Assembly: GCA_018829965.1 (NCBI GenBank)
Contig: JAHJTG010000005.1
Location: forward strand, 49,558 to 113,557
Direction: 5' to 3'
DNA length: 64,000 nucleotides
DNA from: Patescibacteria group bacterium
Lineage (GTDB): Bacteria > Patescibacteriota > Minisyncoccia > Minisyncoccales > Staskawiczbacteraceae
Shown here: piece after piece, positions 34,717 through 58,753 of the stretch
Layout of the letters: every line of letters starts with the position of its first letter
Position numbering within the stretch: the stretch's first letter is position 1
Notes under the pieces: model-generated
What the model saw: only the letters and a program-made list of their open reading frames with translations
Databases searched by the model: none
What the model was told of the DNA's origin: nothing
Made by a program: the position numbers and the translations under genes

Positions 34717-35719
34717 TTATTTACTGTCTTTAATATATAATTTTAAAATCTTATTTTTAATTTTATAAGTATTGCCGTGTTTTATTAGTCCTAAATAAGA
34801 AGCGAGGGTTTTAATGTTTAAATCTTTATTTATATTTTTAAATATTCTTCTCTTTGTAGCCGTACGAAGCACCCGATGGTCTGGAAAATTGATCCATCCC
34901 AAAAAATCAACTCCCGAAAATAAAATTTTAATGAATATTTTATCGGAATGCATAATAAGTTTTAATCTGTTTTTTAAAAAATTGTTAATTATTTCAATTA
35001 AACTTTCTATATGTTTTTTGTCTTTTGATAAAATAATAAAGTCGTCAGCATATCTAATATAGTGTTTCTCTTTTAATTTATGTTTTGCAAAATTATCAAA
35101 TTCATTCATATAAACATTAGCGAAAAGCTGCGAAGTTAAGTTTCCAAGAGGCAAACCAGTCCCTATTTTTCCTGAATTAAAACTGAATATTATCTCCTTT
35201 AAAACATTTATAACATTTTCATCTGATATGTATTTTTGTAAAATCTCCAACAATATTTGCTGATTAATACTTGCAAAAAAACTTTTTAATATCGCATTTT
35301 AAAACCCAGCAGGTTTTTGTGTTATTTTTTGAAACAATGTAGGCAAACTCTCTGAACCTATTTATTGCCCTATGCGTTCCTTTATTGTCTCTACAAGAAA
35401 AAGAATCTGGAATAAATGTCCCATTAAAAAATGGGCGCAATATGCGATATACGGCACGGTGTAAAAGACGGTCGCGGACGCTGGCTTTGTGGATTGTTCT
35501 TGTTTTTGGGTCGCTTATTTTGAAACATTGGTAGTTGCCGTGTTCGTATATATGATTTTTTAAATCATGGTGCAATGATAAAATATTATCCATTAAATAA
35601 AATGAAAACATTAGAACATCTTTTCTGTTCCTCTTTCCCCTAACAAAGGCTCTCCATGCATTTAATAAATTATCAACACTAATTATATCTTCAAATTTAT
35701 GTCTCAATTTAATCCTCAT
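34717..35719 (-). pseudogene. DGR-type reverse transcriptase (DGR-1) split by a +1 frameshift in a T7 homopolymer
   Basis: Two ORFs (35264-35719, 151 aa; 34717-35253, 178 aa) together align along the full length of the intact RT at 53541-54533. The break is at …CDIKKFF where this copy has AAAAAGTTTTTTT (7 T) and the intact copy has 6 T. Deleting one T restores FFASI…. Carries the IGNLTSQ and YIRYADDF motifs. Confidence 0.75.
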
Positions 35720-36085
35720 AATAATTTTTTAAACCTCGCCAACAACCAATTTAGTTTGAGTATAATTCAAAAATTAACTAATACCTATAAAGTATGGTAT
35801 GAATATTTACCTGACTTTCCTAAAGATTCAAAATATACCCTTGGCGCTAAGGTTGATTCTTTATTTTTAGAAGTAATTGAAGAAATAATAAAAGCGAGCA
35901 GTTCAGACAAGACAGAGAAACTAATTTTTCTTAAAACCGGTTCTGCTAAGTTAGATTTACTTAAATTTTTTTTGCAAATTGTTTGGGAGATAAAATCTTT
36001 AGATAATAAAAAATATATAAACCTTTCTGAAAAACTGAACGAAATTGGGAAAATGCTGGGGGGATGGCTTAAGTCGTTAAAATAA
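35699..36085 (+). CDS. avd: Avd-like four-helix-bundle accessory protein of DGR-1
   Basis: 128 aa with LPDFPKDSKYTLGAKVDSLFLEVIEEIIKA, matching the FPK-E-Y-L…NI-EG pattern of the four-helix-bundle family to which DGR Avd belongs. Nearly identical over the C-terminal 100 aa to the ORF at 54513-54896. Encoded divergently, with its 5' end overlapping the RT start. Confidence 0.55.
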   Translation: MSQFNPHNNFLNLANNQFSLSIIQKLTNTYKVWYEYLPDFPKDSKYTLGAKVDSLFLEVIEEIIKASSSDKTEKLIFLKTGSAKLDLLKFFLQIVWEIKSLDNKKYINLSEKLNEIGKMLGGWLKSLK

Positions 36086-36119
36086 AAACCACCCAAAGGG
36101 GTGGAAAAAACAAAGAGAT

Positions 36120-36256
36120 TTGCGGGGGAGGACGAAGACGAAATGATTGTTGCTATTCCAAACGTTGTCAGAATTGTCATAGTAGCTGTTGAGCCACAGA
36201 CTATTGTCATTATGCTCCACATTGAACAGCTTGAGATCGCCATCCGAGTCAGTAAT
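36120..36256 (-). repeat. DGR-1 template repeat (TR1), 137 bp
   Basis: Aligns without gaps to VR1 (36636-36772) with 10 mismatches, 9 of them at TR adenines in the minus-strand coding sense. The 3' end in coding sense is GC-rich and identical (…CGTCTTCGTCCTCCCCCGCAA). Confidence 0.8.
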
Positions 36257-36631
36257 ATATAAAGCGTCATCTATGCCACTGCCCATTGAATGCTCTCCGG
36301 GCTGAATCTTATTCGGTATCTTAATATACCTTAACACCTTATACCAAGTATCTTCATTTTTTAAAAATCAGAGATGACTCTTTTGAAAGGCGTACCCGTC
36401 AAAATTCTGCATACATCTGAAATATAGAATTCGGCCACCTGAAGCCGTAACCGCAGATTTATTAGCCTACTATCCGATTTCAATTTTAGCATATCGGGAG
36501 AAAAAAAAGAACCCCTCTTTGCATTTTTAAATTGCATGAGGGGTCTTTGTCTTTTGCGTCTCTTGAAGTTTTAAGGAACCAAGCGTTCAAAGAAGAACAA
36601 AGGTTCCAAGCTACCAAGAGTATTTTGAAGA

Positions 36632-37258
36632 TTACTTGCGGGGGAGGACGAAGACGAAAGGATAGTTGCCATTCCAAACGCTGCCAGAATGGGCATAGTA
36701 GCTGTTGAGCCACAGACTATTGTCATTATGGTCCACATGGAACAGCTCGAGATCGCCATCCGAGTCAGTAATTGGCTCCATGGCGATAATAAGTACTTCG
36801 CCTTTGGGCTGGTCTTTGTACTGTAAGCGCAGTTGGGGGCCGACTTCATTCGGGCAGAGTTCTAAACCGAGCTCTTTTGCTCTGGCGTAAATCTTCTCAC
36901 GAGTCTCTCCATTCTTGAAACCGAGATCGGCAACACTGATGTTGACTAAATCCAATTCTGTTTCCTTGACGGTAACCGTGAACTGAGACTTGCCAAGAAT
37001 GTCGTTAGCGTATTTGCCGATTTCCATTCCGTTATCCTTTATGGCTTTACGGAAGTCGTCGGCGGTTGTGATGCCAGTGCCGAGGGTGATGGTTTGGAAA
37101 ATTTTAAAACTTGGCATCGTTTCTGGCGGACATAAGGCATTTTTGAGAACTTTTTGAAGACCCTTAGGATTCTCAATCCAGCTTTGCATCAGATCATCTG
37201 GCATTTCGGGTAAATTTTGTGCTACTACTCCAACAAATTTTGCAGTTTGTTTGTGCAT
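36632..37258 (-). CDS. DGR-1 target (variable) protein with a C-terminal VR
   Basis: 208 aa with SD AAAGGAG 8 nt upstream. C-terminus …DSDGDLELFHVDHNDNSLWLNSYYAHSGSVWNGNYPFVFVLPRK is encoded by VR1; the TR encodes …FNVEHNDNSLWLNSYYDNSDNVWNSNNHFVFVLPRK, Asn-rich as AAY codons. Confidence 0.75.
   Translation of the reverse strand: MHKQTAKFVGVVAQNLPEMPDDLMQSWIENPKGLQKVLKNALCPPETMPSFKIFQTITLGTGITTADDFRKAIKDNGMEIGKYANDILGKSQFTVTVKETELDLVNISVADLGFKNGETREKIYARAKELGLELCPNEVGPQLRLQYKDQPKGEVLIIAMEPITDSDGDLELFHVDHNDNSLWLNSYYAHSGSVWNGNYPFVFVLPRK
36636..36772 (-). repeat. DGR-1 variable repeat (VR1)
   Basis: See TR1. Ends at the stop codon of the target gene. Confidence 0.8.
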
Positions 37259-37512
37259 GGCGTTTTCTCCTTTCTGAGGTTTTCGCCTATTCTATTTATA
37301 CTAGAGGACCACCACAATGATAGTCATAGCCAGAAAACACCGAAAACTTTTATCAGTATCTTTTGGCTATGACTATAAATTGCAAGTAATTTTGAGTGTA
37401 AAAGAGCTTATTCACTATGTTTTAACTATAGCACTACCGAGAACTGTTGTCAAGCCCGAAAACAAAAAAACCGCCCTAGGCTTCCCAAAGACGGTTTCGA
37501 AAACTTATTACT

Positions 37513-53540: not shown

Positions 53541-54533
53541 CTAAACAACAAAACTCTTAATAATCGCTTCTTTTGTTTTATAAGTATTGCCGTGTTTTAT
53601 CAGTCCAAAATAAGAATTAAGGGGTTCAATATTCAGATTTCTTTTTATCTTCTTAAACATTCTTCTCTTTGTAGCAGTGCGAAGTACCCGATGACTTGGA
53701 AAATTAACCCAACCCAAAAAATCAACCCCAGAGGATAGAGTTTTAATGAATATTTTGTCGGGATGCATGACAAGCCTTAATCTGTTTTGTAAAAAATTGC
53801 TAATTATTTGGATTAAATTTTCTATATGTTTTTTATCTTCAGACAAAACAATAAAATCATCGGCATATCTGATGTAGTATTTTCCTTTTAATTCATGCTT
53901 CATAAACTGGTCAAACTCATTCATATATACGTTGGCAAAAAGCTGAGAAGTTAAGTTGCCAAGAGGCAAACCGGTTTCTTGTTTTCCTGAATTAAAACTG
54001 AATATTATTTCTTTTAAAAGGTAAACAATATTTTTATCCAGTATGTATTGCTCTAAAATATTGACCAAAATATTTTGATCAATTGAGGCAAAAAACTTTT
54101 TAATATCGCATTGTAAAACCCAGCAGGTTTTTGTGTTGTTTTTTGAAACAATATAGATAAACTCTCTGAACCTATTTATGGCCTTATGCGTTCCTTTATA
54201 ATTTCTGCAGGAAAACGAATCTGAAATAAAGGTTTTATCGAAAAACGGGTATAATATACGATATACGGCGCGATGTAATAGGCGATCGCGAACGCTAGCT
54301 TTGTGGATTATTCTTGGTTTTGGATCGCTTACTTTAAAACATTTGTATCCGCCGTGTTTGTAATTATTATTAATCAGGTCGTAATACAATGATAAAATAT
54401 TATCCATCAGACTAAATTGGAATTCTTGTACATCTTTTTTGTTTTTCTTTCCCCTGATAAATTCTTTCCATGTATCTAATAAATTATCAATACTAATAAT
54501 ATCTTCAAATTTATGATTCAATCTTATTTTCAT
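53541..54533 (-). CDS. DGR reverse transcriptase (DGR-2), intact
   Basis: 331 aa from MKIRLNHKFEDI. N-terminal …W..F..GK..K…F…NIL.L..L…Y.HG.Y..F.V.DPK.R.I.KA.V.DR.LHRA pattern, the DGR-specific motif-4 signature LGNLTSQ, and catalytic YIRYADDF. No maturase or endonuclease domains. Confidence 0.85.
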   Translation of the reverse strand: MKIRLNHKFEDIISIDNLLDTWKEFIRGKKNKKDVQEFQFSLMDNILSLYYDLINNNYKHGGYKCFKVSDPKPRIIHKASVRDRLLHRAVYRILYPFFDKTFISDSFSCRNYKGTHKAINRFREFIYIVSKNNTKTCWVLQCDIKKFFASIDQNILVNILEQYILDKNIVYLLKEIIFSFNSGKQETGLPLGNLTSQLFANVYMNEFDQFMKHELKGKYYIRYADDFIVLSEDKKHIENLIQIISNFLQNRLRLVMHPDKIFIKTLSSGVDFLGWVNFPSHRVLRTATKRRMFKKIKRNLNIEPLNSYFGLIKHGNTYKTKEAIIKSFVV

Positions 54534-54896
54534 AATAATAATTTTACTTCTAACCCCCCATTTAGCTTGAGTATAATTCAAAAACTGACGCGGGTTTACA
54601 AACTATGGCAAGAATATTTGCCTGATTTTCCAAAAGATTCAAAATATACTCTTGGCGCAAAAGTTGATTCTTTGTTTTTAGAAGTAATTGAAGAAATAAT
54701 AAAAGCAAGCAGTTCAGATAAAACAGAAAAACTAATTTTTCTTAAAACCGCTTCTGCTAAATTAGACCTGCTTAAATTTTTCTTGCAGATTGTTTGGGAG
54801 ATAAAATCTTTAGATAATAAGAAATACATCTTACTTTCTGAAAAACTGAATGAAATAGGCAAAATGCTTGGAGGATGGATCAAATCGTTAAAGTAA
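54513..54896 (+). CDS. avd: Avd-like four-helix-bundle accessory protein of DGR-2
   Basis: 127 aa, same family pattern as avd of DGR-1 and >90% identical to it over the C-terminal ~100 aa. Divergent to the RT and overlapping its start by ~21 nt. Followed by hairpin GGCGATAAAAATA/TATTTTTATCGCC. Confidence 0.55.
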   Translation: MIQSYFHNNNFTSNPPFSLSIIQKLTRVYKLWQEYLPDFPKDSKYTLGAKVDSLFLEVIEEIIKASSSDKTEKLIFLKTASAKLDLLKFFLQIVWEIKSLDNKKYILLSEKLNEIGKMLGGWIKSLK

Positions 54897-55005
54897 GCAA
54901 AGCATATTTTCGTCATTCATTCGGCGATAAAAATATTAATATTTTTATCGCCCTCATTTATTAGAGAATAAAAACCGCCTAAAAAGGCGGAAAAAACGAA
55001 GAGAT

Positions 55006-55136
55006 TTGCGACGACCGAGGAAGCGATCGTCCTCATACCAAGCATACCCGAAAGAGCGCAGGTTCAAGCGCCGATCATCAGCATGGCTGCACAAACACGG
55101 CACGAGGAGATAGCCACCGGGAATCCGCCAGGACGA
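55006..55136 (-). repeat. DGR-2 template repeat (TR2), 131 bp
   Basis: Aligns without gaps to VR2 with 8 mismatches, 6 at TR adenines in coding sense. Encodes Asn/Tyr-containing SSWRIPGGYLLVPCLCSHADDRRLNLRSFGYAWYEDDRFLGRR. The bidirectional hairpin CCGCCtaaaaaGGCGG lies just outside at 54975-54997. Confidence 0.75.
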
Positions 55137-55503
55137 TATATATAAAACATCATCTATGCCACTGCCCTTCGAAGCTATAAAACGATCTCAGGGCTGTATC
55201 TAATTCGGTATCTAAAATACCTTAATGCTTTATACCAAGTAATCTTCGTTTTTTACTAAATCAGGAACGACTCTTCCAGAAGCCGTAACCGCTGGAATCC
55301 TGCGTTATCCTGAAATATAGAATTCGGCCGCCTGAAGCCTTGACCGCAAACATATTAGCCTACTATCCGAATTAATAATATCATTATTTGTAAAATGTGA
55401 AAACCCCGAAACGAACATTCGTTTCGGGGTTTTATTGCCAAGGGTTCAAGAGACTAAGATTCAATGAAGAATCAAGGTTCCAAGTTCCCAAGGATTTTGA
55501 AGA

Positions 55504-56103
55504 TTACTTGCGACGACCGAGGAAGCGATCGTCCTCATACCAAGCAGACCCGAAAGAGCGCAGCGGCACGCGCCGATCATCAGCAAGGCTGCACAAACAC
55601 GGCACGAGGAGACAGCCACCGGGAACCCGCCAGGACGACTTTAGAGCAACTATCGGAAATTGTCGTTGAAGCTCCGGCTGATCTGATCCTAACGCGAGCA
55701 GGTCTGCGATATCTCCAGGCTCACATCCAGCTTGGGACATTTCAGCAATCGCATCATCACTCGAGATATTACGTTTGAAGTCGAAAAGGATGAATTCTTT
55801 CTCTTCTTTACCACTACCCACGACCGGAAAATGCTCTTGAGTGATATCACTATTTACACAATCATATTTACCAGCTTTAATCATTTCCGCTAAGGTCTTG
55901 GTGCGGTCCACTGTGAGGTTATAGATTGGACGGACAACACCAACAATGAATTTAGCAATTTGTTTTACCAAATCCTCACCCTCAGGTGTCGCGAGCTTAC
56001 GAATGCTCTCGTCATCTCCGCCTAGCTTATAAACTTCTTTTACTAATGCCTGAATTATAGACATTAACACTCCCATCCACGATACAAGATTTGACTTCGC
56101 CAT
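55504..56103 (-). CDS. DGR-2 target (variable) protein with a C-terminal VR
   Basis: 199 aa with SD AAAGGAG upstream. C-terminal 44 aa are encoded by VR2. The middle region is weakly similar to the DGR-1 target. Confidence 0.7.
   Translation of the reverse strand: MAKSNLVSWMGVLMSIIQALVKEVYKLGGDDESIRKLATPEGEDLVKQIAKFIVGVVRPIYNLTVDRTKTLAEMIKAGKYDCVNSDITQEHFPVVGSGKEEKEFILFDFKRNISSDDAIAEMSQAGCEPGDIADLLALGSDQPELQRQFPIVALKSSWRVPGGCLLVPCLCSLADDRRVPLRSFGSAWYEDDRFLGRRK
55508..55638 (-). repeat. DGR-2 variable repeat (VR2)
   Basis: See TR2. Ends at the target stop codon. Confidence 0.75.
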
Positions 56104-56284
56104 TTTTATCTCCTTTTAACTTTTTCGGCAAATCTCCCGTTCCAGAACAACTGAAATCTCAGACTCGCCTTTGGTTGAAACCATTAAACTGCTTTTTTGT
56201 AATCTAATGGTTTCAACCAAATTTATCGCAAGTAATTTTAGATATAAAAGAGCTTACTTACTATTTATAATATAACACGCCTCC

Positions 56285-58753
56285 TTACCTCTTGTCAATA
56301 GCAACAAGGTTTATTAACTTACCTAATATAAATATTATTTTCTTAACTTCTTTACCTTCAATCCATTTCTTGATCTTCTCGCTGTTTAAAGCAAGCTTCT
56401 CCGCCTCTTTTTGGGTAATATCAGAATCAACCTCTATTTTATCGCGCACACTGCCATTAATCTGAATAATTAATAACACTCTTTCCCTCTTAATTAATTC
56501 AGAATCATATTTAGGCCACTCTTGTTCACAACAAAACCCTTTAAATCCCGCCTGCTTCCAGAGCTCTTCAGATATATGAGGAGCAAATGGTGAGAATAAG
56601 ATTAATAGCTTTTCAATTGTATCTTTACCAACTTCGTTTTGATGACTGCTAATAAAATTCAGAAATTCCATAAAAGCAGCCACTGATGTATTAAACTTCG
56701 CTGCTTCCAAGTAGCTACCTATTTTTTTAATCAAACGATTTAAAGCTGATTCTACTTCTTTACTGCTTTTTTTACTATTGCAACCTAAAATCAAATCCCA
56801 GAATCTCTCTAAAAATCTCCTACATCCCTTTATTCCTTGAGTATTCCATGCAATCGCTTGATCAAACGGCCCCATAAACATTTCGTAAAGCCTTAAAGTA
56901 TCTGCGCCGTATTCTTTCACAATATTGTCAGGATTTACCACATTGCCCCATGACTTTGACATTTTCCTGCTGTCCTCAGCTAAAACCATCCCGTGAGATG
57001 TTCTTTTAGCATAAGGCTCTGATTGCGGAGCGACTTTAATATCATATAAAAATTTGTACCAAAAACGAGAGTACAATAAATGGAGAGTCGTATGTTCCAT
57101 CCCCCCGTTATACCAATCAACCGGCATCCAATATTTCAATTTTGCGGAATCAGTCAATTCCTTATTATTCTTCGGGTCAATGTATCGCATGAAATACCAA
57201 GAAGAACCTGCCCAATTCGGCATAGTGTCTGTTTCTCTCTTAGCCGATCCTTTGCATTTCGGACATTTTACGTTTACCCATTTTGAAATAGCTGATAAAG
57301 GAGATTCGCCAGTTCCTGTCGGCTGATAATTCTTAACAAAAGGTAGTTTCACCGGCAAATCTTTTTCTGGAACTGGCCACATTCCTTGCCCGCCGTAGCC
57401 TTGGCGAAGGTGGGCGCACTTCTCGCAATGAACAATAGGTATTGGCTCGCCCCAATAATGCTGTCTTGAAAATACCCAATCGCGAAGCTTGTATTGAATT
57501 GTTTTTTTGCCTAAACTATTTAGCTCCAGCCATTTTGTAATCTTTTCAATTGCTTCTTCAGATTTTAGCCCATTGAATTCTCCTGAATTAATCAAAACTC
57601 CATATTCTTCGTAAGCCATTTCGCATCCGTGTAAATCCGTTTTCTTATCTGTGTCAATCTGTGGCGCTATAACTTCCCGCATGGGAAGATTATAGCGCTT
57701 AGCAAACTTGTAATCCCTGCTATCATGAGCCGGAACCATCATTACTGCTCCTCCGCCATAAGTTGCCACGACATAATCTCCTATCCAAATCGGCACTTTT
57801 CCTCCGTTTAAAGGATTAATGCAATAAGAGCCAGTGAAAACTCCTGTCTTCTCTTTTTCCAATTCTATTCTTTCAAATTCGCTTTTAAGCTTAGACTGTT
57901 TAATATATTCTTTGACCTTAGCTTCGTTTTCTTTTGTAATAATTTCTAAGGCCAATGGATTTTCCGGAGCTAAAACAACAGCAGTTACTCCGAAGATAGT
58001 ATCTACCCTTGTTGTAAAAACAGTTATTTTCTTTTCCGAGTTTTCTATTTTGAAATCAACTTCTGCTCCAAAGCTTTTCCCTATCCAGTTTATCTGCTGA
58101 GTTTTTATCTTTTCTAAATAATTAACATTATCTAAGTCTTTTATCAGACGATCTGCGTATTTAGTAATCTTTAGCATCCATTGTTCTTTTTCTTTCTGCT
58201 CTCCTTGAGTTCCGCATCTTTCACATTTGCCATTAACTACTTCTTCATTCGCTAATCCGGTTTTGCAAGAAGGACACCAATTAATCGGCATTCTCTTTTT
58301 ATACGTCAATCCATTCTCAAAAAGCTTTAAGAATATCCACTGAGTCCATTTATAGTATTTAGGGTCGGTTGTATTAATCTCTCTTTGCCAATCAAAAGAA
58401 AGACCTAAGCTTTTTAATTGGCGCTTGAAGGTAGCAATATTTTTCTTTACCGTAACTGAAGGATGAATACCTGTTTTAATGGCATAATTCTCTGCCGGCA
58501 AACCAAAAGCATCCCAACCGATTGGAAACAAGACATTGAATCCTTCCATTCTCTTTTTCCGAGCAACTGCATCTAAAGCCGTGTAGCTTCTTACATGCCC
58601 TACGTGCAAACCCTCGCCAGAAGGATAAGGGAATTCGATTAAAACATAAAACTTCGGCCTCTTTGACTTATCCTTTGCCTGAAAAACCTTTCCTTTTTCC
58701 CAGATTTTCTGCCATTTCGATTCAATTTTACCAGGATTATATTTTAAAACCAT
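56285..58753 (-). CDS. leuS: leucyl-tRNA synthetase
   Basis: HVGHVRSY (HIGH), KMSKSWGN (KMSKS), an editing domain and zinc motifs. Start chosen at the ATG at 58753 (MVLKYNP); the tracked ORF begins at an upstream TTG. Confidence 0.9.
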   Translation of the reverse strand: MVLKYNPGKIESKWQKIWEKGKVFQAKDKSKRPKFYVLIEFPYPSGEGLHVGHVRSYTALDAVARKKRMEGFNVLFPIGWDAFGLPAENYAIKTGIHPSVTVKKNIATFKRQLKSLGLSFDWQREINTTDPKYYKWTQWIFLKLFENGLTYKKRMPINWCPSCKTGLANEEVVNGKCERCGTQGEQKEKEQWMLKITKYADRLIKDLDNVNYLEKIKTQQINWIGKSFGAEVDFKIENSEKKITVFTTRVDTIFGVTAVVLAPENPLALEIITKENEAKVKEYIKQSKLKSEFERIELEKEKTGVFTGSYCINPLNGGKVPIWIGDYVVATYGGGAVMMVPAHDSRDYKFAKRYNLPMREVIAPQIDTDKKTDLHGCEMAYEEYGVLINSGEFNGLKSEEAIEKITKWLELNSLGKKTIQYKLRDWVFSRQHYWGEPIPIVHCEKCAHLRQGYGGQGMWPVPEKDLPVKLPFVKNYQPTGTGESPLSAISKWVNVKCPKCKGSAKRETDTMPNWAGSSWYFMRYIDPKNNKELTDSAKLKYWMPVDWYNGGMEHTTLHLLYSRFWYKFLYDIKVAPQSEPYAKRTSHGMVLAEDSRKMSKSWGNVVNPDNIVKEYGADTLRLYEMFMGPFDQAIAWNTQGIKGCRRFLERFWDLILGCNSKKSSKEVESALNRLIKKIGSYLEAAKFNTSVAAFMEFLNFISSHQNEVGKDTIEKLLILFSPFAPHISEELWKQAGFKGFCCEQEWPKYDSELIKRERVLLIIQINGSVRDKIEVDSDITQKEAEKLALNSEKIKKWIEGKEVKKIIFILGKLINLVAIDKR

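Follow-up and report, generated by a model that had tools for sequence, protein, structure and literature searches.

Two TR-(avd)-RT DGR cassettes of a Patescibacteria genome and their predicted upstream-leader TR RNA

DGRs of CPR/Patescibacteria were reportedly dealt with by Paul et al. in Nat Microbiol in 2017. The DGR mechanism is known from one phage, Bordetella phage BPP-1, in which the RNA elements lie downstream of the TR; the DGR RNA of this phage consists of 20 nt of avd, the TR and a 140-nt Sp, and in the model for this phage the TR is co-transcribed with brt, Sp lying 3' of the TR (Handa et al. 2018, PMC6182149; bioRxiv 10.1101/2023.10.23.563531). CPR DGRs, on the other hand, make up a third (126 of 372) of the DGRs in one curated set, and Architecture B3 was found in 90% of the CPR DGR set, the formula TR-(avd)-RT denoting by its parentheses a gene on the reverse strand (Wu et al. 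2018, NAR 46:11, PMC5758913). Stem-loops just 3' of the TR in CPR DGRs have been read as Avd-binding (Handa et al.).

Two cassettes of Architecture B3

The window analysed here, a stretch of 64,000 nucleotides from a Patescibacteria group bacterium (GCA_018829965.1, contig JAHJTG010000005.1), contains two chromosomal Patescibacteria (CPR) DGRs, with an RT of the DGR clade (RVT_1 domain, an LGxxxSQ-type motif and YxDD) and TR/VR pairs that differ at TR adenines and have the VR at the 3' end of an ORF. Cassette 1 comprises the target gene (36632-37258), its VR (36636-36772), the TR (36120-36256) and the RT gene (34717-35719) on the minus strand and the avd ORF (35699-36085) on the plus strand; in cassette 2 the corresponding minus-strand positions are 55504-56103 (target), 55508-55638 (VR), 55006-55136 (TR) and 53541-54533 (RT), with avd at 54513-54896 on the plus strand. 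Read along the minus strand, both cassettes have the order target with VR, terminator, conserved spacer, TR, hairpin, opposite-strand avd and RT. An earlier note on this DNA had read this anatomy correctly, including the gene order, opposite-strand avd, overlapping starts, hairpins and conserved spacer in both cassettes, while its reading of the hairpin as bidirectional and the meaning it gave to an ORF antisense to avd did not hold, as described below. The note had further called the layout non-canonical, which is true only relative to BPP-1: bAvd ORFs on the plus strand between a minus-strand TR and RT are standard Architecture B3 for CPR, and the question it raised of whether avd is antisense in other DGRs of the lineage is answered by an opposite-strand avd in all 75 related loci with enough upstream DNA. 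The two cassettes match the Architecture B3 CPR DGRs of Wu et al. (2018) in gene order, strands, Avd gene and Patescibacteria host, likewise have small targets without annotated function, a C-terminal VR and adenine-specific TR/VR differences, and show no layout-level difference from them. The layout is not new; it is ordinary for the lineage, and the cassettes are further members of Architecture B3.

The source is a metagenome-assembled genome and the RT gene of cassette 1 has a homopolymer frameshift, both of which would fit a local inversion or an assembly artefact as the origin of the opposite-strand avd with its overlapping starts. The probability of such an origin is, however, practically negligible, as the arrangement recurs in both cassettes of the window and in 75 independent assemblies produced by separate studies, and is found in the literature (Wu et al. 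2018, PMC5758913).

Both plus-strand ORFs encode a true Avd, since avd1 (128 aa; E = 4.8e-19) and avd2 (127 aa; E = 2.3e-18) match Pfam bAvd (bAvd-like; PF22296) with scores of 69.3 and 67.1 bits, the cut-off being 40. The avd ATG sits 20 nt within the RT ORF, giving a 21-nt overlap in both cassettes and agreeing with the overlap of about 21 nt between the avd 5' end and the RT start that had been noted before. This overlap is not universal: an avd ATG with a 21-24 nt RT overlap was present in only 18 of 77 loci, the window's two cassettes included, and an in-frame stop occupies the overlap position in most loci without it. The claim that both overlapping frames are open in both cassettes stood for the two avd genes and for RT2, which is intact, starts with the ATG at 54533, encodes 330 aa and carries LPLGNLTSQ and YADD motifs, but failed for RT1, which is split into two ORFs by a 1-nt frameshift (one extra T in the T7 run at 35275-35281). 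The RT matched RVT_1 in Pfam (E = 7.9e-26), both motifs are invariant in the RT alignment, and the RT homologues, thousands of them at 65-76% identity from Patescibacteria, indicate a very large clade. The frame opposite avd had also been described as open; the ORF antisense to avd gave no Pfam match and, since this frame is stop-free in only one of 71 related loci (over which the best antisense phase averages 3.9 stops), we attribute it to chance.

TR1 and VR1 (137 nt each) are 93% identical and differ at 10 positions, nine of them TR adenines, and in cassette 2 the TR/VR repeat comparison gave eight differences, six of them at TR adenines. Among the relatives (60+ loci), 1045 of 1136 TR/VR mismatches (92%) fall on RT-sense TR adenines, indicating that the TR RNA is minus-sense here and giving a sequence-level answer to the question, posed in the earlier note, of which strand produces it. 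No additional VR for TR1 or TR2 was found within the window, leaving one VR per TR. The adenine-specific divergence suggests that mutagenic retrohoming, with cDNA synthesis and VR replacement, may be active; RT1 is frameshifted.

The leader upstream of the TR

The conserved blocks previously listed for the spacers of both cassettes were confirmed by comparison. Besides CTTGG-type 8-nt repeats and the target terminator, the spacer holds an extended -10 promoter and a structured leader, and what had been called the conserved spacer thus seems to be the promoter and ~220-230-nt structured leader of a self-contained TR transcript. The putative extended -10 promoters are located on the minus strand at 36483-36491 (TGcTAAAAT) in cassette 1 and at 55375-55383 (TGaTATTAT) in cassette 2; the motif TGnTAnnnT occurs in 33 of the 44 relatives and TAnnnT in all 44, and the conserved RNA begins 6-7 nt downstream of the -10. 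Leader 1 (36257-36475, minus strand) comprises helices P1, P1a, P2 and P2a, box A, and helices P3, P3a and P3b; its 3' domain (36252-36366, minus strand) contains box A, UACUUG and a 12-bp P3 enclosing P3a and P3b. In leader 2 (55137-55368, minus strand), box A lies at 55243-55254 and the 3' domain is a covariance-model match at 55135-55257. The 5' domain of the leader (~135 nt) has two hairpins sharing a UUACGG loop motif. The covariance model, R1, scored 114 bits in cassette 1 (E = 8e-22) and 99 bits in cassette 2 (E = 1.2e-18), with exactly one RT-sense copy in each of the 70 loci with upstream DNA and two in the window, and nhmmer found the leader in 72 of 77 loci, its end always 1-5 nt before the TR.

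Covariation across related genomes, suggested in the earlier note as a check on the spacer, was indeed detected: RNAalifold on a sequence-only MAFFT alignment of the leader gave 55 base pairs, 45 of them with compensatory changes. Of the leader cells 94.8% were paired, as compared to 72.4% in shuffles (0 of 500 reaching the observed value) and ~40% in slid controls; the covariation score was 0.72 (0.28 in shuffles and 0.15 in slid controls), and double-change cells numbered 601 as compared to 174 in shuffles. The shuffle controls retain phylogenetic relatedness; evidence against an artefact comes from the slid controls and from the large number of independent pair types. The RNA strand of the leader is fixed by conserved G-U pairs: one is UG in 40 of the 44 sequences, and two more are GU in 38 and in 41 of them. 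Single-sequence folding energies of the full RNAs were not significantly below those of shuffles (z = -1.2 and -1.7).

Two minus-strand ORFs of 58 and 86 aa (36361-36537 and 36077-36337), together with conservation at the nucleotide level, could suggest that the spacer is a small protein gene or a DNA-level protein-binding or recombination site devoid of RNA structure. We regard this as very improbable, since the ORFs had no Pfam matches, many alignment indels are not multiples of three, and the variation is dominated by compensatory base-pair changes, as seen from the excess of double-change cells over shuffles. Moreover, read on the other strand the conserved G-U pairs would become A-C mismatches, so that a symmetric site in duplex DNA is excluded.

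One published conservation analysis covered only 40 nt upstream and 100 nt downstream of the TR, and would therefore have missed this leader. The leader, its promoter, the A:A' helix described below and the CTTGG repeats are undescribed in the published B3 accounts examined (e.g. PMC5758913). The 15-mer ATGAAGATACTTGGT had more than 120 matches in viral contigs; none of the 80 loci among the matches listed fit the covariance model, and we therefore consider these matches to be due to chance.

Helices and terminator around the TR

In the linker, 2-6 nt beyond the 3' end of the TR/VR homology, lies the partner of leader box A (AAAAAUGAAGA), and this pairing covaries. On the minus strand of cassette 1, box A (AAAAAAUGAAGA, 36351-36362) has its partner in box A' 3' of the TR (UCUUUGUUUUUU, 36105-36116), which begins 4 nt past the end of the TR/VR homology, while box A' of cassette 2 (UCUUCGUUUUUU, 54991-55002, minus strand) is the perfect complement of box A (AAAAAACGAAGA). 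The A:A' helix was predicted de novo by RNAalifold with seven of seven pairs compensated, and 91% of its cells were paired as compared to 75% in shuffles (0 of 500). The mean duplex energy was -6.9 kcal/mol for cognate and -4.8 kcal/mol for non-cognate combinations, none of 10000 permutations being as good. Both the MFE and the centroid fold of the full-length RNA of cassette 2 contain the helix; in the MFE fold of cassette 1, box A pairs locally and not with A'.

Box A is followed by five or six invariant nucleotides (UACUUG) and then by the P3 strand of the leader. P3 has 12 bp, with 97.5% of cells paired and nine pairs compensated; its 3' strand in cassette 1 (36257-36268) adjoins the TR, and the median gap between P3 and the TR 5' boundary, taken as the start of TR/VR homology, was 2 nt over 61 loci. 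The sequence immediately before the TR accordingly finds its pairing partner upstream, in P3, and not downstream. Taken together, A:A' and P3 enclose the TR as a loop, and a single organising strand takes part in both helices.

Downstream of the TR, a minus-strand hairpin with a U-run was found at 36079-36104 in cassette 1 (CCACCC-CUUU-GGGUGG), where it overlaps the avd stop codon and is a possible Avd-binding stem-loop, and at 54965-54990 in cassette 2 (CCGCC-UUUUUA-GGCGG). In cassette 1 the TR is separated from the avd stop codon by only ~40 nt of linker, hairpin and U-run; cassette 2 has its terminator at the same position. A hairpin with a T-run was present in 56 of 63 loci at a median of 11 nt after the TR, and a recognisable terminator was absent in the remaining seven. 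The proposal that the hairpin is bidirectional was contradicted by T-runs that flank it only on the minus strand and by terminator scans that called that strand only (36104-36089 and 54990-54975); judged by its sequence, the hairpin after the TR is a one-directional intrinsic terminator.

The avd gene converges on the TR unit and diverges from the RT gene, and an extra 13-bp hairpin after avd2 (54923-54952, plus strand) is a possible avd terminator. In the related loci no consistent -10 box for the RT was seen near the divergent starts, and neither a conserved RT promoter or SD upstream of the RT nor a conserved avd promoter was found; the avd-side -10 signals coincide with the AT-rich and strongly conserved codons of the RT for EDIIS and are inseparable from coding conservation. 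Hence, RT expression may rely on read-through from the TR promoter. The same lack of a conserved promoter or SD upstream of the RT would suit a functional DGR RNA that is one long minus-strand transcript of leader, TR, antisense avd and RT, in which the hairpin would be no more than a stem-loop for Avd binding or a weak attenuator, the downstream Sp elements for priming and RT binding would come from the stretch antisense to avd, as in the Bordetella phage, and the leader before the TR would act only as 5'UTR, stabiliser or regulator. The co-transcription of TR and brt in the phage with Sp 3' of the TR, the reading of CPR stem-loops just 3' of the TR as Avd-binding by Handa et al. and the seven of 63 loci without a clear terminator point in this direction as well. 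Nevertheless, we find a single long transcript unlikely, since a U-run (UUUUGUUUU) is conserved after the hairpin in the 56 loci, the strand before the TR pairs upstream in P3, the linker 3' of the TR pairs with the leader, A:A' and P3 already supply both TR-closing duplexes, and the sequence 3' of the hairpin is under Avd-coding constraint.

The proposed TR RNA, its likenesses and the target flanks

In our view the two CPR TR-(avd)-RT cassettes probably comprise three or four transcription units each, with an upstream-leader TR RNA. The extended -10 directly after the target terminator would drive a non-coding minus-sense RNA of ~400 nt, made up of the ~220-230-nt leader, the TR, a short linker and the intrinsic terminator hairpin, with predicted ends at ~36476 and ~36080 in cassette 1 and at ~55369 and ~54965 in cassette 2. 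By analogy to what cryo-EM and biochemistry have shown for the DGR of the Bordetella phage, where cis-priming is from the 2'-OH of a spacer adenosine, the template:primer duplex would be the A:A' helix, and it is pure analogy that suggests cis-priming of the cDNA from an adenosine at the 3' end of box A; A:A' may serve only to close the loop. On the same analogy, P3 with its two hairpins and the conserved A-rich single strands may form a cDNA-stop and RT-binding module, the TR terminator hairpin may double as the Avd-binding stem-loop, and RT and Avd may act on the TR RNA in trans.

The window RNA resembles that of BPP-1 in having the TR loop closed by two helices with one organising strand and a stop duplex of 12-13 bp, in the order and polarity of primer strand, short linker, stop strand, small stem-loop, A-rich single strand (~12 nt) and larger stem-loop, and in a stem-loop immediately 3' of the template strand. 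In contrast to the phage, its organising strand and hairpins are 5' and not 3' of the TR, the strand before the TR is non-coding rather than the avd 3' end, and the RNA has a putative promoter and terminator of its own and an extra 5' domain of ~135 nt. Instead of a structured Sp of ~140 nt immediately downstream of the TR, the conserved structure is upstream; two TR-closing duplexes (A:A' and P3) are present and both covary, with permuted connectivity and with roles assigned by analogy. No sequence similarity between the window RNA and the BPP-1 DGR RNA was detectable. By the same analogy, the TR RNA may be seen as the phage DGR RNA circularly permuted, its "Sp" functions being relocated 5' of the TR because the reversed avd fills the TR-RT interval. 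That the DGR RNA of the CPR/Patescibacteria clade is such a natural circular permutation of the Bordetella phage RNA is offered more tentatively, as a proposal to which we give slightly less than even chances. Under this proposal, an autonomous RNA of ~400 nt would work in trans with Avd and RT, cis-priming would start from a leader box ~105 nt upstream of the TR paired with the linker just 3' of it, cDNA synthesis would be halted at the TR 5' edge by the 12-bp P3, and the CTTGG repeats 3' of the VR would replace the phage GC hairpin as target-recognition element.

The covariation-supported model provides exact coordinates for the predicted transcript ends, primer:template duplex, stop helix and protein-binding hairpins, and given how compact this DGR is (330-aa RT and 127-aa Avd), it could guide the reconstitution of a second, independent DGR system as well as the design of minimal tools for targeted mutagenesis. 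In genome annotation, the TR of the clade can be located precisely with covariance model R1.

Among Rfam motifs, RT-10 has been placed in the BPP-1 TR-brt spacer, and RT-14 (RF02921) and RT-9 (RF03080) are candidate structured RNAs beside reverse-transcriptase genes (Weinberg et al. 2017, PMC5737381). For the window leader, the alignment with RT-14 spans hairpin P2a, the AAAAAUGAA box and the helix that comes next, and RT-9 aligns to the leader 5' domain in the window and in the related locus L022; the scores stay far below what membership in either family would require (21.9 bits against a gathering score of 48.1 for RT-14, and 19 and 30.3 against 46.1 for RT-9). RT-10 was not among the matches of the window leader at E up to 10. 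A tRNA was the only match in the window to reach an Rfam gathering score, and in 20 related loci no RT motif scored that high.

Target 1 encodes 208 aa without a Pfam match and has its VR at the 3' end, and target 2 encodes 199 aa and is by BLASTP unrelated to target 1. Both target genes have a predicted strong sigma-70 promoter and a structured 5'UTR. The promoter of target 1 (37425-37453, minus strand; TTGACA-17-TATAGT with TG, 11 of 12 matches) is conserved also in the related loci L006, L002 and L001, and that of target 2 (56269-56298, minus strand) reads TTGACA-18-TATATT with TG. The 5'UTR of target 1 (37320-37420, minus strand) holds a conserved block, AAGCUCUUUUACAC..AAAAUUACUUGC, and a long hairpin with arms at 37320-37346 and 37350-37376, formed by a 27-nt inverted repeat of 81% complementarity; that of target 2 (56170-56262, minus strand) holds the block and a 17-bp perfect hairpin (56170-56186 and 56205-56221), so that the shared block and hairpin reported upstream of both targets were found again. 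A pairing of this block with the VR 3' end (CGCAAGUAAU, 14 nt, cassette 2) was considered and rejected, as L006 and L002 retain the block without the complementarity, which is probably a coincidence. At the other end of the target genes, CTTGG/CTTTG repeats with ~8-nt spacing follow VR1 on its 3' side (36570-36625, minus strand) and CTTGG-type repeats follow VR2 (55435-55492, minus strand). The putative target terminators, also on the minus strand, lie at 36501-36545 in cassette 1, where a hairpin (GACCCCUC...GAGGGGU) with a T10 run was read from the sequence, and at 55396-55433 in cassette 2, where a 16-bp perfect hairpin is followed by a U-run.

Cassette layout and the avd/RT overlap

Two paralogous DGR cassettes lie in the window, both on the minus strand. 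Cassette 1 consists of a target gene (36632-37258, minus) with its variable repeat (VR; 36636-36772, minus), the template repeat (TR; 36120-36256, minus), avd (35699-36085, plus) and the reverse transcriptase gene RT (34717-35719, minus), while cassette 2 has its target at 55504-56103 (minus), VR at 55508-55638 (minus), TR at 55006-55136 (minus), avd at 54513-54896 (plus) and RT at 53541-54533 (minus). Both plus-strand ORFs match Pfam bAvd (69.3 and 67.1 bits, cut-off 40), and with these coordinates the anatomy described in the earlier note was confirmed for both cassettes. Aligned with each other, the cassettes show a mean column identity of 77%, with strong conservation of avd, the RT start, the spacer and the target 5'UTR and none of the target coding regions, and no BLASTP similarity was found between the two target proteins. 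The flanking genes have housekeeping functions (FtsZ, YbeY, YqeY, HisRS, TPP oxidoreductase and LeuRS), and the cassettes are therefore chromosomal. The RT of cassette 1 is split by one extra T into ORFs 35264-35719 and 34717-35253, with a minus-strand T7 run at 35275-35281, and deleting one base recovers a 329-aa RT with 74.5% identity to that of cassette 2; this frameshift may stem from a sequencing error in the homopolymer, may mark a pseudogene for which the second RT acts in trans, or may point to slippage-dependent expression.

At E <= 1e-20, RT has at least 8000 homologues annotated from Patescibacteria, the best 120 being 65-76% identical, and 80 related loci from species-representative genomes were sampled. 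In 75 of these, avd is the gene immediately upstream of RT and is encoded on the opposite strand, the remaining five lacking upstream DNA. The same order, TR-(avd)-RT with parentheses for the reverse strand, is Architecture B3, which makes up 90% of the CPR set of Wu et al. (2018; PMC5758913). Hence, the layout previously called non-canonical is so only relative to the Bordetella phage and is the published standard for the lineage, of which both cassettes are further members.

In each cassette, the start codon (ATG) of avd is located 20 nt within the RT ORF, which produces the 21-nt overlap noticed earlier. Such an overlap (21-24 nt) occurs in only 18 of 77 loci analysed, both window cassettes counted; in most of the remaining loci, an in-frame stop close to the start of RT shifts the avd start to as much as about 70 nt before that of RT. 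Among related loci there is no conservation of the ORF antisense to avd, and the minus-strand ORFs over avd matched no Pfam family in either cassette. Separate transcription units are needed when DGR components sit on different strands (Wu et al., 2018; PMC5758913). Given the head-to-head overlap of the start codons, the avd and RT mRNAs may be leaderless; otherwise their 5' ends must be antisense to each other. Around these starts (35699-35719 and 54513-54533), avd and RT are without a recognisable Shine-Dalgarno at normal spacing, the target genes having AGGAG, and no conserved RT promoter or Shine-Dalgarno was found upstream of RT.

A structured leader upstream of TR

The VR-TR spacer of about 370 bp had been noted as conserved between the cassettes, and this was borne out both by their alignment and by an element of about 240 nt detected with nhmmer in 72/77 loci, always on the RT-sense strand and ending 1-5 nt before TR. 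Read 5' to 3', the interval contains CTTGG-type repeats, the target terminator, an extended -10 promoter (TGnTAnnnT in 33/44 loci, TAnnnT in 44/44) with a conserved GGnAGUAGG starting 6-7 nt downstream, and a structured leader. For 44 leaders aligned by MAFFT on sequence alone, RNAalifold predicted 55 base pairs, of which 45 show compensatory changes. Paired cells amounted to 94.8%, compared to 72.4% in column shuffles (0/500) and about 40% when partners were slid by 1-3 columns; double-change cells numbered 601 versus 174 in shuffles, and the covariation score was 0.72 against 0.28 (shuffles) and 0.15 (slid). Since near-invariant G-U pairs would become A-C mismatches on the opposite strand, the predicted structure is assigned to the RT-sense strand.

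The 5' group of helices forms two arms, P1/P1a and P2/P2a, whose hairpin loops share a UUACGG motif, followed by helix P3 of 12 bp; enclosed by P3 are two hairpins, P3a and P3b, together with the conserved single strands GAAUAMGAUACA and GUGGYA..GA.G. The P1a and P2a loops (e.g., about 36445-36455 and 36393-36403, minus, in cassette 1) carry the same motif (G/C)GRUUACGGYUU, which suggests two copies of one candidate protein-binding site. A covariance model of the leader 3' domain gave exactly two matches in the window, at 36252-36366 (E = 8e-22) and 55135-55257 (E = 1e-18), and a single match in 70/80 related loci, all in RT sense, the other 10 lacking upstream DNA. TR-to-VR differences fall on RT-sense adenines at 9/10 positions in cassette 1, 6/8 in cassette 2 and 1045/1136 (92%) in related loci, arguing that the TR RNA is minus-sense in the window. 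To our knowledge, the TR RNA has the RT sense in every characterised DGR.

We thus interpret the conserved spacer as the covariation-supported leader of a self-contained TR RNA. No Rfam 15 family reached its gathering score for the leader in the window and 20 related loci; sub-threshold, co-linear matches were to RT-14 and RT-9, among the RT-associated candidate RNAs for which Weinberg et al. (PMC5737381) suggested DGR or retron membership. Handa et al. reported stem-loops directly downstream of TR in CPR DGRs, their analysis being limited to the 40 nt before and the 100 nt after TR. We found no published description of the upstream leader, and an earlier one is possible, e.g., in Paul et al. 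(2017).

The predicted 3' end of the TR RNA and a proposed helix closing around TR

The hairpin after TR had been proposed to be bidirectional, which did not hold, as T-runs and terminator calls were obtained on the minus strand only. In 56/63 loci a hairpin with T-run follows the TR/VR homology at a median distance of 11 nt, its stems covary (CUCUCCC/GGGAGAG, CUUCCGC/GCGGAAG, CCACCC/GGGUGG, with UUUUGUUUU next), and it overlaps the avd stop codon, for which reasons we regard it as a predicted one-directional intrinsic terminator of the TR RNA. Cassette 2 has, for avd, a second hairpin of 13 bp (54923-54952, plus), and its avd and TR terminator are separated by about 75 nt; cassette 1 has neither feature.

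A leader segment about 105 nt upstream of TR, box A (AAAAAUGAAGA), is complementary to a segment, A', of the linker between TR and terminator. In cassette 1, AAAAAAUGAAGA pairs with UCUUUGUUUUUU including two G-U pairs, and in cassette 2 the pairing of AAAAAACGAAGA with UCUUCGUUUUUU is perfect. Across relatives both boxes change together, as in L065 (CAUACGA with UCGUAUG), L034 (AAAAUAACA with UGUUAUUUU) and L018 (AAAAUAAAGC with GCUUUAUUUU). Cognate duplexes had a mean energy of -6.9 kcal/mol versus -4.8 for non-cognate ones (0/10000 permutations as good), RNAalifold predicted the helix de novo from MAFFT-aligned box-plus-tail constructs with 7/7 pairs compensated and 91% of cells paired (75% in shuffles, 0/500), and both the MFE and the centroid structure of the complete cassette 2 RNA contain this helix. 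The median distance from the last P3 pair to the start of TR/VR homology is 2 nt, and in most loci 2-6 nt separate the end of the homology from A', so that the diversified segment would be exactly the loop between P3 and A:A'.

In the Bordetella phage RNP, TR is looped out between a template:primer duplex, formed by TR and nucleotides 53-56 of the downstream spacer RNA (Sp) and primed from A56, and a cDNA-stop duplex in which Sp 58-70 pairs with the strand immediately preceding TR (PMC6182149; bioRxiv 10.1101/2023.10.23.563531). Past these pairings, the Sp strand folds into a small stem-loop, which is followed by unpaired adenosines, by about 12 single-stranded nucleotides termed the "thumb ring" and by a bRT-binding stem-loop; the stem-loop bound by Avd is located immediately 3' of TR. 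In the CPR leader, the elements come in the order and polarity seen in Sp (box A, UACUUG, P3 5' strand, P3a, a 12-nt A-rich single strand, P3b), and a stem-loop likewise stands just 3' of the template strand; in contrast, the organising strand connects to TR on its 5' side. Read most economically, the CPR RNA would be a circular permutation of the Bordetella phage RNP core, matching the permuted gene order since the reversed avd occupies the place of Sp. Putative priming would then occur from the box A:A' duplex and the putative cDNA stop at P3. RT may be expressed from a promoter of its own or through read-through of the terminator. The leader model thereby offers a concrete, testable scheme for how reverse transcription is organised in this abundant DGR class, a more useful result than the layout.

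Target-associated elements

Directly downstream of VR lie degenerate CTTGG/CTTTG/CTTAG repeats (36570-36625 and 55435-55492, minus), spaced by 8 nt and also 7 and 16. In the 90 nt 3' of VR across L001-L080, CTT[GTA]G averages 2.6 copies per 90 nt, compared with 0.30 in the background, most often spaced by 8 nt, and the array may be a candidate target-recognition element of the clade. CUUGG is also invariant in the leader, directly after box A.

Common to the target genes are a promoter close to consensus, a block in the 5'UTR (AAGCUCUUUUAYAY..AAAAUUACUUGC) and a long hairpin (37320-37453 and 56170-56298, minus; also L006 1796-1881, L002 and L001), the hairpin being kept in both cassettes with a completely different stem sequence. 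Complementarity of the block to the last VR bases and stop codon (UCGCAAGUAAU; 55500-55513 with 56226-56239, and an equivalent 9 nt in cassette 1) is probably coincidental, since L006 and L002 keep the block without it. Within 2-3 kb of the DGR cassettes of two related loci, we also observed a group I intron match (55.2 bits; L057, 436-645, minus) and the 3' end of a 16S rRNA gene (L013, 1-541, plus).
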